DNA from: a virus
Lineage: Duplodnaviria; Caudoviricetes
IMG/VR virus record: IMGVR_UViG_3300028025_003339
Span: 1 to 60,471 of that record
DNA length: 60,471 nucleotides
Direction: 5' to 3' (one strand)
The notes beneath the pieces were generated by a model. It saw nothing but the letters and a program-made list of their open reading frames with translations. It searched no databases and had not been told where the DNA came from. Shown in pieces: positions 6,257 through 15,927 of the stretch (position 1 is the stretch's first letter; each line of letters begins with the position of its first letter). The position numbers and the translations under genes were made by a program.

Positions 6257-7396
6257 ATGTTAAGAGAAAACGTAGAAGTTAGTGGTTCATTAAATGTAAG
6301 TGGACAATATATTATACCAAGAGGGCCACGAGCAAATAGGCCATCTAGTCCTGATATTGGGTCATTATATTTGGAAGAATCTACTAGTGGTAGTTTTGTG
6401 GTTACATATACAGCCTCATCAAATTATGATGGTGGTTGGGAACCAGTTGGTTCACAAAATACAGATAGAACAGGATTTAAATATAGACAGGTTATTAATT
6501 ACTCATACTTAGCTGGTGGTTATAAATCCGCATCACCATGGAAGAATGTTCATAGAACAACAAATTCAACAGACCAAACGGTTCACTTAGGTGAACTATT
6601 AGATTATCCGGCATCATATACATCCGGTGCTTGTAGTAAAAGCATTTTATTTCTTTGGTCAACAAATACAGATGGTACATTTAAAGGGGACAGCACTATT
6701 CATTCAACATGGACTAGTGGTGTTAATATGGTAAACGAAACATCATACGCTCATCAAACCAAATGGGATTTAGCAAATGCGAGAGATGATTGTGGTACTT
6801 TACATCAAGAAACAGAATTTGCTTGGATATTTGGTGCTGGGGTAGCTGCGGTTGAGAAGTTTAATTTAACAAACGAAACAATGTATAGTGTATACTATCA
6901 AGCGGGTGTACCATACATTACTACAACATCATCAATTACTGGTAGTGGACCATCAGGTGCTTCGGGATTTTCTGACGAAAACTACGGATATGGTTGGACA
7001 CAACAAAGTGGAACTAAATTATTTTTTGCAAACGATACGTTCACAAACAATCAACAATGGGGTGCGAGTGGACAACAAAAAGGAATTAGCTCAAAGGTAG
7101 GAAAAGGATATGCAGGAAATGAAGGTACATATAATGGGGGTTACAACTTAAGAAGATGGAATGTTTTTACCGAAACCAATCTTGGTAATGTGGCAAAACC
7201 ACATGGTAACTGCGGAGAAGAAAACTTTACAATGGGACAAGATCATCAATATATGTTAGGTTGTTATGACGGTGCACAGGTAAATACTAGTTGGAAATTT
7301 GGTTACACTACGGATACTGGTACAGTAAACCCTAGTGGTTTGGCACCAGGAGTAAATGATGGAACATCATCAGGTCATTGCGGTTGGAGAACATAA
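6257..7396 (+). CDS. Propeller/kelch-like virion-associated protein, paralog 1
   Basis: N-terminal VSGSL + RANRPSSP..GSLYLE module; YLAGGY; C-terminal GTSSGHCGWR. Confidence 0.7.
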   Translation: MLRENVEVSGSLNVSGQYIIPRGPRANRPSSPDIGSLYLEESTSGSFVVTYTASSNYDGGWEPVGSQNTDRTGFKYRQVINYSYLAGGYKSASPWKNVHRTTNSTDQTVHLGELLDYPASYTSGACSKSILFLWSTNTDGTFKGDSTIHSTWTSGVNMVNETSYAHQTKWDLANARDDCGTLHQETEFAWIFGAGVAAVEKFNLTNETMYSVYYQAGVPYITTTSSITGSGPSGASGFSDENYGYGWTQQSGTKLFFANDTFTNNQQWGASGQQKGISSKVGKGYAGNEGTYNGGYNLRRWNVFTETNLGNVAKPHGNCGEENFTMGQDHQYMLGCYDGAQVNTSWKFGYTTDTGTVNPSGLAPGVNDGTSSGHCGWRT

Positions 7397-7414
7397 AATT
7401 TATATTTATAAGAT

Positions 7415-8521
7415 ATGCTACACGAAAATATTGAAATTAGTGGGTCCCTAAAAGCACAAGGTGTGATAAAATCACCAGTAGGCACGCGGGCAAATAGACC
7501 TAGCAGTCCACAAACTGGTTCTTTATATTTAGAACAAGCAACTAGTGGTAGTTTTTTGATGGTTTATGTTGGTTTAAGTAATAGCGATAGTGGATGGGTT
7601 AGGGTATCTTCTCAAGTAAACGCCAATGTTGGTTTTAAATTTAGACAGATAATTAGTGTTTCTTATCTTGCGGGTGGTTATAAAGATTCATCCCCTTGGA
7701 AAAATGTTCACAAAACAATTAACTCTACAGATCAAACAACACACATTGGAGAATTGTTAGATCATCCAGCATCATATACATCGGGAGCTTGTAGCAAATA
7801 TATCTTTTTTATTTGGTCGGTTAATACAGATAATACATTTAAAGGACCGAGTACTGTAGATAGTGTTAGAACCTCAGCAATTAACATGGCGAATGACACA
7901 AAATATACACATAATCAAAAATTCAATATTACCAATGCTAGAAGTGACTTAGGAACCATGCATAAAGAAACAGAAATGGCTTATATGTTTACCGGTGGTA
8001 GTACTGTTGTTGAAAGATTTGATTTAAGTACGGAAACAATAGCAACTGGTTTCCATTTAACAACGATCGATGGTAGTGATGGTGGTTCAGCATTTTCTGA
8101 TGAAAACTTTGGATATGGTTGGACGTCATCTGCAGGTATTAAAATGAGTTTTGCAACGGAAACAATTACATCAAGTGGAATGTGGGGCGCACATTCACAA
8201 CAAAAAGGAATTAGTTCAAAAGTTGGAAAAGGTTATGCTGGAAACGAAGGTTCATATAATGGTGGTTACAACTTAAGAAGATGGAGTAATGCTAATGATA
8301 CCAACATTGGAAACGTATCAAAGCCTCATCCTAATTGCGGTGAAGAAAATTTTACCATGGGTCAAGATCATCAGTATATGTTAGGTAATTATGATGGGCT
8401 ACAAAATAATACAAGTTGGAAATTCTTCTATGCAACAGATACAGGAACAACCAGTGTAAGTGGGTTAAACCCCGCAGTCAATGCTGGAACATCATCTGGG
8501 CATTGTGGATGGAGAGGGTAA
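7415..8521 (+). CDS. Propeller/kelch-like virion-associated protein, paralog 2
   Basis: Collinear with paralog 1; TATTTATA upstream at 7403-7410. Confidence 0.7.
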   Translation: MLHENIEISGSLKAQGVIKSPVGTRANRPSSPQTGSLYLEQATSGSFLMVYVGLSNSDSGWVRVSSQVNANVGFKFRQIISVSYLAGGYKDSSPWKNVHKTINSTDQTTHIGELLDHPASYTSGACSKYIFFIWSVNTDNTFKGPSTVDSVRTSAINMANDTKYTHNQKFNITNARSDLGTMHKETEMAYMFTGGSTVVERFDLSTETIATGFHLTTIDGSDGGSAFSDENFGYGWTSSAGIKMSFATETITSSGMWGAHSQQKGISSKVGKGYAGNEGSYNGGYNLRRWSNANDTNIGNVSKPHPNCGEENFTMGQDHQYMLGNYDGLQNNTSWKFFYATDTGTTSVSGLNPAVNAGTSSGHCGWRG

Positions 8522-8535
8522 AAAATAATTAAATT

Positions 8536-13924: not shown

Positions 13925-14016
13925 GGGGAGGTGGGTGAGTGGTCTAAACCAGCAACCTCCGAAGTTGTCATTGGATCTAAAAAAGTCAATCGAGGGTCCG
14001 AATCCCTTTCTCCCCG
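13925..14016 (+). tRNA. Class II tRNA: Ser-type body with CCG (Arg) anticodon
   Basis: Acceptor GGGGAGG/TCTCCCC + G73; D arm GGTGAGTGGTCTAAACC; anticodon stem GCAAC/GTTGT with loop CT-CCG-AA; 23-nt variable region (ATTGG/TCAAT stem); T arm GAGGG-TCCGAAT-CCCTT; CCA not encoded. Confidence 0.85.
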
Positions 14017-14047
14017 CACAATAAACTTTTCTTAAACAAAAAACAAA

Positions 14048-14932
14048 ATGAGAAAAACAATCACAATGCTATCGCTAATGTTAGCACTATTGTTTACTAC
14101 CACTATGTCATTTGGACAATATAGTAGTAGTGCAATTCAGAAAGGTTCGGAACAATCCTTAAACGTTCGAACGGACTCGGTCCCTAATCAATTACAAGAA
14201 ATCGTTGTTACAGCAAAGAAAGTACCACTAATGACCAAAGTTGGTCCTTATGGTCAACCACTTTGGACAACAATGAGAATGTTTGCATCCACAAGAGTTT
14301 ATGTGATGAACCCTCCAGGTACGGCAATGTACGAGAAGTGGTTTGACATTAGACAAAGAAGAAATGGACCAGCTCAAATCAGAATGAGAGATGAGTTTAC
14401 ATTTGGTTTAGGTAAACGACTTCAATTGGATATGTATTCACACACTGTTTATGATGGATACAATGGAGACAAAGAATTCAAATGGAGAGGTTTCTCTTGG
14501 GAATTCCGTTATGCTCTTGCTGATTGGGGTAAGTTATGGGGTAACCCAACCCTATATTGGGAAACAAAAATGTTAGATGGTCGTTGGGGTATCGAGCCTA
14601 AATTATTATTGGGAGACAGAGTTGGAGAAAGAGGTATTTGGGGATTCAACGCAATCTATGAAGGTAATTTATCAAGAATCAAAGAACTTCGTGAAGATGA
14701 ATACGCATACACTGCATCGTACGCTAACATCATCAATAATGATTTAACTTTAGGTGTGTCACATATGTTTAGATACAACGATTTTGATGGAGGTTCACAA
14801 GAATGGTATCTTGGACCACTACTTCAATATCGATTTAATAACAAGGCTTATTTGAATGTTGAACACATGCCAGGTCTTAATCAAGACGCAAAACAATCAA
14901 GAACCACAATTATATTTGCATGGAGATTTTAA
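14048..14932 (+). CDS. Secreted outer-membrane beta-barrel protein
   Basis: Signal peptide, LQEIVVTA TonB-box-like motif, amphipathic strands, terminal aromatic ...IIFAWRF. Confidence 0.7.
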   Translation: MRKTITMLSLMLALLFTTTMSFGQYSSSAIQKGSEQSLNVRTDSVPNQLQEIVVTAKKVPLMTKVGPYGQPLWTTMRMFASTRVYVMNPPGTAMYEKWFDIRQRRNGPAQIRMRDEFTFGLGKRLQLDMYSHTVYDGYNGDKEFKWRGFSWEFRYALADWGKLWGNPTLYWETKMLDGRWGIEPKLLLGDRVGERGIWGFNAIYEGNLSRIKELREDEYAYTASYANIINNDLTLGVSHMFRYNDFDGGSQEWYLGPLLQYRFNNKAYLNVEHMPGLNQDAKQSRTTIIFAWRF

Positions 14933-15927
14933 TCAAAGGACAAGAGTTTCTTGTCTACTTAATATTCATTATGTTCGTAACAGGTATCCTCAAAGAAAGA
15001 GGATACCTTATGGACATCTTCAGACTGCTTGAACAAAAAGTTAAGTCTAAAAGAATGGTAGTATTTTTAGTATCACTATTTGGCGGTATCTTACCAATCC
15101 CTGGTCGTGTTGCATTATCGGCATCAATGTTAAACAGCATTGCTCCTGTTGATAATAAGAAACGTAAGAAGTTTGGTATCATTGATTATTTGGCAACACA
15201 TCATTACTATCTATGGTCACCATTAGAGAAGACGGTTATCATCCCAATGGCTGTGTTAAGTTTAACTTATATGCAATTCATGTCATATATTTGGCCATTA
15301 CTTTTAATATCGGTATTGTATGTTACATATTATATCCTATCATTAAAAGATGATGAAATTGACATTGAAGTTAAAGATGAACCAATTAATATACAAAACA
15401 TAACCATGGTGGTTATACCATTCTTGGTTACCATACTAATGTGCGTATTTCTTACTGAATACTATTTTGGTTTCTTTACTGCATTCACAGCGTGGTTAGT
15501 ATATTACTCTAAGAGTTGGAATAAAATACTTAGTTACATTGATTGGGAATTAATATGGATTGTTGGTTTAGTTATTATTTTAGGTAACCTTGTTGGGTCC
15601 TATTATAGTGTGATTGAATCATATATTAAACAATATAGTAAACCTGAATATATTTTGGTTGTCTCTGTTATATCATTCCTTTCATCATTTATGTTAGGTT
15701 CTTCAGCCAAGTACGCGAGTATTGTTAGTTTACTAACGAGTGTGTTTGGTATGCAGTACTTTGTTTTATTCTTTACATTGGAATATTCAGCGTACTTGAT
15801 TTCACCGTCCCATAAGTGTTTACCGATTGGTCAAAAGTATTTTCATACTGGATTTATGACTTATTTGAAAGCACTGATTGTGTGGATATCTTTAATGATG
15901 ACGTACGCACTTTTAACAATTATATAG
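14920..15927 (+). CDS. DUF401-like multi-pass inner-membrane transporter
   Basis: About 9-10 hydrophobic segments; GGILPIPGRVALSA and LISPSHKCL motifs. Confidence 0.65.
   Translation: MEILIKGQEFLVYLIFIMFVTGILKERGYLMDIFRLLEQKVKSKRMVVFLVSLFGGILPIPGRVALSASMLNSIAPVDNKKRKKFGIIDYLATHHYYLWSPLEKTVIIPMAVLSLTYMQFMSYIWPLLLISVLYVTYYILSLKDDEIDIEVKDEPINIQNITMVVIPFLVTILMCVFLTEYYFGFFTAFTAWLVYYSKSWNKILSYIDWELIWIVGLVIILGNLVGSYYSVIESYIKQYSKPEYILVVSVISFLSSFMLGSSAKYASIVSLLTSVFGMQYFVLFFTLEYSAYLISPSHKCLPIGQKYFHTGFMTYLKALIVWISLMMTYALLTII

Follow-up and report, generated by a model that had tools for sequence, protein, structure and literature searches.

A Kelch-propeller and U32-like enzyme unit in the host-recognition region of an uncultured freshwater jumbo myovirus: a candidate fibre-tip maturation module

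Introduction

Downstream of their fibre genes, cyanomyoviruses carry a row of four genes, T4-GC351 to T4-GC354 (Syn19_043-046; PSSM4_032-035), which are annotated as 'sericin 1 precursor-like protein' and hypotheticals, and to which the records consulted assign no function. Here we analysed positions 6257-15927 of the IMG/VR virus record IMGVR_UViG_3300028025_003339, a region gene-for-gene homologous to this row and likewise located behind a fibre gene. It encodes predicted Kelch-type propellers, two helical proteins (phrog_1409 and phrog_1604), a U32-like triosephosphate isomerase (TIM) barrel protein and a methyltransferase. The window, as used below, is the whole record of 60,471 bases. T4-GC351 is 27-32% identical to the window propellers and T4-GC354 is 44-47% identical to the window TIM barrel. 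In contrast to T4-GC351-354, the window has three propellers, the reverse order of phrog_1409 and phrog_1604, and separate genes for the TIM barrel and the methyltransferase, and it additionally carries a radical S-adenosylmethionine (SAM) enzyme, a tRNA, a secreted protein and a DUF401 carrier.

The enzymes of the window have described counterparts. U32 proteins (UbiU/UbiV, RlhA, TrhP; Mk0906, PDB 5d88) resemble the modelled window TIM barrel in fold, and a CxxxC pair and a K-x-x-G-R motif can be aligned colinearly between them; the window protein in contrast lacks a PF01136 match and the first cysteine pair, has an extra C-terminal CX3CX2CX2C and an extra C233, and is found in other genome contexts. 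PMC10990095 states that most U32 proteins contain a four-cysteine motif binding a 4Fe-4S cluster, and that their chemistry is likely prephenate dependent. The window radical SAM enzyme is similar to radical SAM/SPASM maturases (anSME, AlbA, PqqE, SkfB) in its CX3CX2C motif and its C-terminal CX10GX4C ... CX2CX6CX3CX2C pattern, and gave weak N-terminal NCBIfam matches to several of them. It differs in that no such family's cut-off was reached and no precursor peptide gene was evident.

Propellers are also known from phage virions and host-recognition devices. CBB_552 of the jumbo phage CBB of Pectobacterium is a Kelch protein that was identified as a virion component by mass spectrometry, and the window family, with its predicted six-blade Kelch fold, likewise belongs to a large myovirus. 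The window propellers can also be likened to the propeller-bearing receptor-binding protein in the host-recognition device of the S. aureus phage phi11. The window family is distinguished from known Kelch proteins by its own repeat signature, a conserved ...SSG...WR C-terminus and the lack of a Pfam Kelch match. The host recognition cluster of pelagimyophages and cyanomyophages, T4-like aquatic myoviruses, is a comparable variable island, in which genes for tail fibres, glycosyltransferases and transport occur alongside radical SAM cassettes; the sections of PMC7029224 consulted do not describe the propeller/phrog_1409/TIM-barrel unit. The radical SAM gene of PMC12801897 is a different matter.

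The unit's genes have been in databases as hypotheticals since the first cyanomyovirus genomes. Literature searches on cyanophage fibre, radical SAM, U32/SPASM, sericin and kelch, with supplements outside their scope, found no paper describing the unit. By these searches, three points appear to be new: the reading of the unit as a Kelch propeller with a U32-like iron-sulfur (Fe-S) enzyme and methyltransferase, its spread to Ralstonia jumbo phages and lake phages, and the link of the TIM-barrel family to bacterial radical SAM/SPASM and type-1 secretion loci.

Results

The unit appears to be all-or-none and occurs in very different phages

The propeller, phrog_1409 and the TIM barrel with its methyltransferase were found to recur together. 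In Syn19 and P-SSM4, the T4-GC351 propeller, T4-GC352 (phrog_1604), T4-GC353 (phrog_1409) and T4-GC354, a fusion of TIM barrel and methyltransferase, are located in a row behind the fibre genes. Among 50,697 isolate phage records, the TIM barrel was found in 126 (77 Synechococcus, 38 Cyanophage, 8 Prochlorococcus and 3 Ralstonia), and phrog_1409 also in 126, with an equal tally of 77/38/8/3. The propeller was found in 123 records (77/38/8), while a conserved cyanomyovirus helicase was found in 419 (335 Synechococcus, 61 Cyanophage, 18 Prochlorococcus and 5 Marine). The unit, including phrog_1604, is thus accessory and appears to be all-or-none among cyanomyoviruses, with 123-126 of ~419 records, roughly three in ten, carrying it. 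The gene set probably works as one, because it travels as one unit in many ocean cyanophages.

The unit was also observed outside cyanomyoviruses. In the Ralstonia jumbo phages RP12 and RP31, which represent another genus in a different phage family with a beta-proteobacterial host, a 292-aa propeller relative, ORF138, phrog_1409, the TIM barrel and an overlapping DUF401 gene form a row. The propeller relative was recognized by profile alignment for RP31 ORF139 (hhalign 79.6%, E 1.5e-5) and by a BFVD structure match for the 292-aa protein of RP12 (TMt 0.74). In RP31, phrog_1409 matched with E 9e-18, and the TIM barrel and DUF401 were 44% and 37% identical, respectively; ORF138 was not recognizable as phrog_1604 in a hidden Markov model (HMM) search (E 0.1). 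Among 13 distant IMG/VR loci (TIM barrel 48-52% identical), the propeller was present in 10, phrog_1409 in 11, and DUF401 directly followed the fused TIM barrel and methyltransferase in 8. Two misses were cut by contig ends and one locus, L179, was truly without partners; the order of phrog_1409 and phrog_1604 varied. From these distributions, the genes of the unit appear to be kept or missing together, and the unit has passed between phages that differ greatly. They also bear out in part the linkage of paralogs and enzymes proposed by an earlier interpretation made from the window's DNA alone (hereafter the sequence-only reading), with propeller, phrog_1409 and TIM barrel/methyltransferase found together in cyanomyoviruses, in RP12/RP31 and on distant contigs. 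Compared with these phages, the window lineage has added the radical SAM enzyme, split the TIM barrel from the methyltransferase and tripled the propeller, and it carries DUF401, the secreted protein and the tRNA.

Three tandem genes encode predicted six-blade Kelch-type propellers

The three paralogs A, B and C, downstream of the putative fibre gene (Table 1), are 62-67% identical to one another and all match phrog_1417. By sequence, no match was obtained in Pfam (Kelch models included, E<=0.01), NCBIfam or PDB. An AlphaFold2 model of paralog B, built from 53 diverse sequences (predicted local distance difference test, pLDDT, 87.0), superposed on KLHL17 (6hrl) with a VIA Z of 29.8 and a root-mean-square deviation (rmsd) of 2.5 A over 270/287 residues; five Kelch domains in all gave Z from 29.8 to 24.8. 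Foldseek returned Keap1 (E 6e-14) and Kelch at E about 1e-13. The top BFVD match was a cyanophage 'Sericin 1-like protein' (E 3.8e-31), and CBB entries named 'Structural protein' and 'Kelch-like protein' were also matched. By this model, the three tandem genes encode Kelch-type six-blade propellers behind a short N-terminal part.

A search for the propeller gave 188 matches at E<=0.001 among 1.84 billion cluster representatives, and the domain formed the C-terminal end of many long proteins, up to 2,368 residues. Across the family, the blade signature and the C-terminal ...SSG...WR were conserved, the latter probably being the strand that closes the propeller. The sequence-only reading had pointed to invariant cysteine motifs. 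SGAC.K, NCGEENF and GTSSGHCGWR are indeed invariant among the three paralogs, but across 53 diverse family members C126 was kept in 18, C308 in 9 and C364 in 24. These cysteines are therefore poor candidate targets. The NCGEENF cysteine is the only one kept in all six (6/6) radical-SAM-positive propellers.

The 1746-aa fibre protein had no PHROG match at 1e-5, and a PDB sequence search was not useful. Its residues 78-232 and 1575-1685 matched depositor-annotated tail fibre or structural genes in 6 phage records, and a stretch of ~90 residues (141-231) recurred in the N-terminal parts of three propeller-ended long proteins (P0307, P0301, P0254), of which P0301 gave no useful PDB sequence match either. 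Because of these fusions with fibre segments, the annotated fibre genes and the presence of CBB_552 in the virion, it is reasonable to read the propellers as fibre tips, and their location in the virion would follow. In a search restricted to the window, the N-terminal 67 residues of paralog A (6257-6460) showed a weak similarity to fibre residues 7-78 (997-1230) (30% identity, E 0.004), and the shared stretch may be an attachment module. Propeller copy number among related loci was 3, 2 or 1. One locus (L156) had its propeller genes broken into eight short open reading frames (ORFs), and three (L145, L146 and L169) had a lengthened copy of 492-506 aa.

The TIM-barrel protein is a predicted remote U32-like Fe-S enzyme

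The protein corresponding to the N-terminal part of T4-GC354 belongs to a family of 1,646 proteins at E<=0.001, and had no Pfam, NCBIfam or PDB sequence match. Seven cysteines (C199, C203, C233, C322, C326, C329 and C332) were invariant in 32 members, and 6-7 of them were kept in 14/16 phage and bacterial members. The AlphaFold2 model (pLDDT 87.8) is a TIM barrel, and of the 48,161 chains compared, the one that fitted it best was the U32 domain of Mk0906 (5d88_A; Z 16.5, rmsd 3.4 A, 229/247 residues), with methylenetetrahydrofolate reductase next at Z 12.9; in Foldseek, 5d88 ranked third with the best TMt, 0.67. Profile alignment by hhalign against 31 U32 proteins from Campylobacterota and Bacteroidales gave 208 colinear columns with E 0.0034 and a probability of only 9.6%. 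It paired NEG-C199xxxC203 with the U32 NRGSCxxxC, and KMHGR with KIEGR. Of the U32 four-cysteine motif, only C199/C203 aligned in hhalign and the first pair was absent; C233, C322, C326, C329 and C332 may replace it.

The fold thus fits Mk0906 best and two motifs align, which upholds part of the U32 assignment of the sequence-only reading, beyond what sequence models could detect. Because there is no PF01136 match, the profile similarity is weak and the first cysteine pair is absent, we call the protein U32-like and do not count it among the U32 proteins. In two genomes bearing the TIM-barrel gene, PF01136 detected one canonical U32 gene each and nothing else. Judged from the model, the protein is a distant, U32-like representative of the Fe-S TIM-barrel hydroxylase fold, and its conserved cysteines suggest Fe-S binding. 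An analogy to MNIO/DUF692 proteins proved loose: only 2/32 members gave a weak AP_endonuc_2 match (E 0.019), and no such structure was among the top 50.

The radical SAM enzyme is confined to the freshwater lineage

The radical SAM assignment was supported by PF04055 (36.8 bits versus a cut-off of 29.5) and by a CX3CX2C motif at C9/C13/C16 that was invariant in 8/8 homologues. Nine C-terminal cysteines were likewise invariant in 8/8 homologues with a spacing like that of the SPASM consensus, which has seven or eight cysteines for two auxiliary clusters. This makes a SPASM domain a candidate assignment; PF13186 was not detected at E<=0.01. Single-sequence and profile searches found no PDB relative. 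We found no tblastn match to the enzyme in the 50,697 isolate phages, and it was absent from 13/13 distant viral loci, and thus the propellers do not need it. It was present in 68 IMG/VR loci, always at one position and as close kin (63-99% identity), and is confined to the freshwater lineage of the window.

The methyltransferase matched PF13578 marginally (26.6 bits versus 26.3), whereas the assignment was clear in the fused homologues, 10/32 of which matched, with a best E of 3.6e-10. No useful PDB sequence match and no TrmR-type NCBIfam match was found. In radical-SAM-bearing loci, the TIM barrel and the methyltransferase were always separate, overlapping genes, while phage loci without radical SAM had them fused, except RP31, which has no methyltransferase, and L179. 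In the window, the two frames overlap by 38 nt if translation of the second begins at the TTG, or by 14 nt if it begins at the following ATG. Misassembly cannot account for the split, because it was kept in every radical-SAM locus whose flank reaches the methyltransferase.

TIM-barrel genes in bacteria lie beside export and radical SAM/SPASM genes

The TIM-barrel gene was found in 22 genome-contig loci, of which L080 and L081 carry the phage unit and look like phage contigs binned into metagenome-assembled genomes (MAGs); the remaining loci are without propeller, phrog_1409 and phrog_1604. In Campylobacterales (L079, L082, L085), tandem TIM-barrel genes accompanied radical SAM and SPASM genes. 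A different radical SAM/SPASM family was thus located beside the TIM-barrel family, and this independently supports the view that the two kinds of enzyme are partners. In L075, L083, L084 and L088, the TIM-barrel gene was beside C39-ABC, HlyD and OEP export genes, and L083 and L075 also held a giant RTX/BapA-type protein. These neighbours fit a peptide or protein substrate. In Smithella/Syntrophaceae (L074, L076-L078), the TIM-barrel gene was accompanied by a 259-aa unknown gene, GNAT, TauE, a CysD-like PAPS_reduct gene and CysN/CysC, suggesting that sulfation may take the place of the phage methylation. Carrier genes beside the TIM-barrel gene also fit a small anion substrate. Tandem TIM-barrel copies were seen in L082 (7108-9053), L074, L079 and L085, and one copy (L082a, 292 aa) had none of the conserved cysteines, which recalls catalytic/non-catalytic pairs.

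Discussion

A candidate module for fibre-tip maturation

We tentatively favour, as a possibility that falls short of an even chance, the reading that the enzyme and propeller genes form a fibre-tip maturation module. The propellers would be interchangeable receptor-binding tips of the fibre. The enzyme operon, with its own early-type promoter-like site, would provide an oxygen-independent set of Fe-S enzymes that act, ahead of assembly, on the tip protein or on a group that it carries. In the likely chemistry, the U32-like enzyme would hydroxylate and O-methylation would follow; in the window lineage, one more radical step would come from the radical SAM enzyme. The probable part of phrog_1409 and phrog_1604 would be that of phage-specific adaptors or assembly helpers, and the small anion transported by the DUF401 carrier would be a co-substrate or a product. 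The same logic of hydroxylation and subsequent methylation is used in the ubiquinone and mo5U pathways.

The sequence-only reading had likewise proposed a maturation pathway for receptor-binding proteins. The propeller/phrog_1409/TIM-barrel-methyltransferase unit and the export context in bacteria agree with it, but the propellers do not need the radical SAM enzyme and the proposed target cysteines are not conserved. Its suggestion that the transport pair supplies a metal or cofactor was not sustained: nothing points to a metal, and DUF401 groups with anion-type carriers.

Several observations weigh against fibre-tip maturation. The case is one of gene context throughout: hydroxylation, methylation, the propeller as their target and its place in the virion are suggested by gene content and would be predictions. 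The isolate-phage record sets were compared by name tallies only, and independent gains and losses are few, because many of the cyanophage records are near-identical isolates. One radical-SAM-positive locus (L066) has a single propeller without C126 and C364, which keeps only the NCGEENF cysteine. For the enzyme itself, 0/32 members of the family matched PF01136 at E<=10, the hhalign probability was low, and the characterised U32 substrates listed in the consulted part of PMC10990095 are RNA bases and quinone (ubiquinone), with no protein among them. HMMs for phrog_1409, phrog_1604 and the propeller gave 0 matches at E<=10 among the neighbours of 18 bacterial loci. With a membrane carrier coupled to the enzyme, a small molecule is a more fitting substrate than a protein. 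L179 (8983-10974; on a 224-kb viral contig) and L073 (91-2085; on a short MAG contig) have the TIM-barrel gene, an 85-90 aa ORF and a dCTP-deaminase-like gene in succession, surrounded by replication genes (DnaB with intein, ligase-like, PD-(D/E)XK nuclease) and without a propeller unit. Finally, unrelated cassettes, radical SAM genes among them, are known to accumulate in the host-recognition regions of marine T4-like phages (PMC7029224).

Other substrates and the case for no joint function

It is possible, but we think rather unlikely, that the enzymes and DUF401, together with the secreted 294-aa protein, constitute a small-molecule or envelope-glycan pathway, in which a small anion is moved, oxidised and methylated, the product being a ligand or cofactor of the propeller or changing the host surface. 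The DUF401 gene overlaps the TIM-barrel gene in RP31 and lies 3' of the TIM barrel and methyltransferase in 8/13 distant loci, and all 12 phage records with DUF401 are of the types tallied in the TIM-barrel search. The Smithella loci join the TIM-barrel gene to the TauE anion carrier and to genes for PAPS (phosphoadenosine phosphosulfate) synthesis, and the next block of the window, at 16444-27472 on the minus strand, is a sugar pathway that includes a PF13578-GT2 fusion. However, most cyanophage records with the module are without DUF401 (12 versus 126), no sugar or small-molecule enzyme family was recognizable in the operon itself by Pfam or NCBIfam, and the glycan block is on the other strand and outside the conserved unit.

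We give somewhat less weight still to a nucleotide substrate, an unlikely alternative in which the U32-like enzyme and the methyltransferase would hydroxylate C5 of a pyrimidine and then methylate it, in tRNA, rRNA or phage DNA (cf. RlhA and TrhP), with the fibre adjacency as inherited order. The U32 proteins characterised so far, in the portion of PMC10990095 seen, act on RNA bases or ubiquinone. Some fused homologues carry the JGI name 'predicted O-methyltransferase YrrM'; in L179 and L073 the dCTP-deaminase-like gene lies beyond the small ORF 3' of the TIM-barrel gene, RP31 has a putative dCTP deaminase 3.7 kb downstream, and a tRNA gene lies 3' of the operon in the window. Against these stand the equal all-or-none tallies of propeller and phrog_1409 in 123-126 of ~419 cyanomyovirus records and the recurrence of the cassette in RP31. 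Moreover, the TIM-barrel gene in bacteria adjoins genes for export or of the radical SAM/SPASM kind rather than genes for translation, the methyltransferase had no TrmR-type NCBIfam match, and the tRNA is absent from 13/26 related loci.

That the genes have no joint function, being unrelated cassettes of a hypervariable host-recognition island held together by descent, is improbable: such islands do hold genes unrelated to fibres, including radical SAM cassettes (PMC7029224, in the part consulted), and all 68 radical-SAM loci are close kin at 63-99% identity, but the unit is found again in phages of another family, whose host is a beta-proteobacterium, survives local reordering of phrog_1409 and phrog_1604, and is patchy yet apparently all-or-none among cyanomyoviruses.

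Fibre-tip maturation could also be one case of something broader, although we regard this extension as doubtful. The TIM barrel would then represent an unrecognised U32-like branch modifying large extracellular beta-rich proteins, namely phage propeller tips and the type-1-secreted RTX adhesins of anaerobic bacteria. A hydroxyl would be introduced and capped by methyl in phages or by sulfate in Smithella, often with a radical SAM/SPASM partner. If so, phage receptor-binding proteins would be matured by oxygen-independent iron-sulfur chemistry.

About three of every ten cyanomyovirus records sequenced carry the unit, as do abundant lake phages and the jumbo phages of Ralstonia, and all its genes are still annotated as hypothetical. 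Fibre-tip maturation, if true, would be a new kind of virion protein modification, would provide the first protein substrate for U32-like enzymes, and would bear on host recognition by marine and freshwater phages. Should the enzymes act on a nucleotide or a small molecule instead, the unit would represent a new auxiliary pathway. The question can be addressed in cultured cyanophages such as Syn19, P-SSM4 and the S-RIM series.

Gene layout and companion features of the locus

Close relatives of the window genes were found on contigs of 250-324 kb, and the window, with a completeness estimate of 18% and a GC content of ~32%, is therefore part of a jumbo phage genome. Among cultured viruses, T4-like cyanomyoviruses are closest to it (protein identity 27-47%), and megablast of the whole region against isolate phages gave no match. 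Near-identical DNA was found in 18 runs, each from a different study (14 of lake water, 2 freshwater and 2 subsurface), and the habitat is therefore fresh water. In this uncultured freshwater T4-like jumbo myovirus, positions 6257-15927 make up the distal portion of the host-recognition region.

The gene calls of the sequence-only reading held up in part. All its ORF coordinates were confirmed, and so were the radical SAM enzyme, the methyltransferase (just above the Pfam cut-off), the DUF401-like transporter and the tRNA, which has a CCG anticodon and a class-II body. Its coiled-coil protein (9692-10456), fibre-chaperone-like protein (10456-11196) and outer-membrane barrel (14048-14932) are putative labels. 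The translational coupling that it described fits the start/stop overlaps at 10456, 11196, 12194-12197, 13197 (TTG)/13234 and 14920/14932. Between 9692 and 13886, each of the five genes meets or overlaps the next one, and the same applies to the genes at 14048-14932 and 14920-15927. Intergenic gaps are <=46 bp except in the tRNA stretch, and the sole 46-bp gap precedes 9692.

Table 1 Features of the fibre-propeller-enzyme region of the window
Feature	Position	Strand	Basis or remark
Putative tail fibre, 1746 aa	997..6237	+	short segments match annotated tail fibre/structural genes
Paralog A, phrog_1417, predicted six-blade Kelch-type propeller	6257..7396	+	11-residue insertion versus B and C; fold modelled on paralog B
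Paralog B, N-terminal ~75 residues and predicted six-blade Kelch propeller (residues 78-368)	7415..8521	+	AlphaFold2 model
Paralog C, family of A and B	8536..9645	+	sequence similarity
Sigma-70-like promoter match, TTGACA-17-TATATT	9647..9675	+	11/12 positions, best in 5900-16600; in the 46-bp gap
phrog_1409 helical protein (= T4-GC353)	9692..10456	+	PHROG match; constant phage companion of the TIM-barrel gene
phrog_1604 helical protein (= T4-GC352)	10456..11196	+	PHROG match
Radical SAM enzyme with SPASM-like C-terminal Cys-rich domain	11196..12197	+	PF04055, Cys pattern; lineage-specific
Predicted U32-like TIM barrel, N-terminal part of phrog_1458/T4-GC354	12194..13234	+	AlphaFold2 fold, 7 conserved Cys
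Class I SAM methyltransferase, C-terminal part of phrog_1458	13197..13886	+	PF13578
tRNA, anticodon CCG, class-II-type long variable arm, 93 nt	13925-14017	+	Rfam 47.7 bits
Secreted protein, 294 aa, putative outer-membrane barrel	14048..14932	+	signal-peptide-like N-terminus, C-terminal ...FAWRF
DUF401/TIGR00529-type membrane carrier, phrog_14035	14920..15927	+	PF04165

The two helical companions have no recognizable relatives outside phages at the sequence level. phrog_1409 had no Pfam or PDB relative and no usable ESM Atlas match, and the sole outside lead for phrog_1604 was PF27318 HI1402_helical in the ESM Atlas (0.91). Some phrog_1409 homologues carry a MazG-type label at JGI; we found no MazG-type Pfam match in 16 members at E<=10, and a PDB profile search gave nothing relevant. 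Two complex predictions for the TIM barrel with phrog_1409 each gave a score of 0.00, the mark being 0.32; this counts neither way.

The DUF401 protein scored 43.6 bits with PF04165 (cut-off 24), 56 bits with TIGR00529 (below the cut-off of 378.4) and 24.3 bits with CitMHS, and by these matches probably belongs with anion-type carriers. All 12 isolate-phage records with DUF401 (9 Synechococcus and 3 Ralstonia) are of phage types also tallied in the search for the TIM-barrel gene, to which the DUF401 gene is tied. The 294-aa protein had no family match in Pfam, PHROG or NCBIfam. Its gene was absent from 7 loci of one set of related loci and 5 of another, with flanks present, and adjoined DUF401 in the distant locus L186. 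At 15979-16449 on the plus strand lies a gene for a 156-aa protein matching phrog_1401 (E 1.7e-6), found 3' of DUF401 in nearly all relatives whose flank reaches, and the protein may belong to the unit.

tRNA and promoter-like elements

The tRNA combines an arginine anticodon, CCG, with a class-II body that has a variable-arm stem of 5-6 bp and a discriminator G, the latter typical of bacterial tRNA-Ser. Its anticodon and T stems showed compensatory changes among 8 copies, and it was present in 13/26 related loci. The CGG codon is rare in the window (9/17,444), with 5/9 occurrences in the fibre and paralog genes; the CGG at codon 25 of paralog B aligns with an invariant arginine.

A T4-late-promoter-like TATAAATA, judged by the T4 late consensus, is located at 977 before the fibre gene and is the single plus-strand copy in the first 17 kb. 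Sigma-70-like matches in 5900-16600 were not above chance (57 found versus 56 expected). The TTATATTAGTAT element of the promoter match at 9647 recurs ahead of the tRNA at 13909, and a shared TTGAnn-N17-TATATTAGTAT precedes both the enzyme operon (9647-9680) and the tRNA (13887-13920). The 12-mer element, with <=1 mismatch, had 7 copies in the window versus 1.63 expected, and 0/100 shuffles reached 7. These pattern matches hint that the enzyme operon may be transcribed apart from the late fibre and propeller genes. Short contigs from two freshwater metatranscriptome runs matched paralog B, phrog_1409, the 294-aa gene, DUF401 and 15979-16449, some with 0-1 differences; such libraries can contain DNA, so that contigs there are no proof of transcription and uncovered bins are uninformative.

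The adjoining sugar-pathway block

The block at 16444-27472 runs on the strand opposite to the fibre and enzyme genes. It contains genes for an NAD epimerase/dehydratase, a family 2 glycosyltransferase (GT2), a PF13578 methyltransferase fused to GT2, a short-chain dehydrogenase/reductase (SDR), an AMP-binding enzyme, a DegT-type aminotransferase fragment and GT1/GT4 glycosyltransferases. The block resembles the glycosyltransferase-rich host-recognition islands of pelagimyophages, as these are presented in the part of PMC7029224 consulted.

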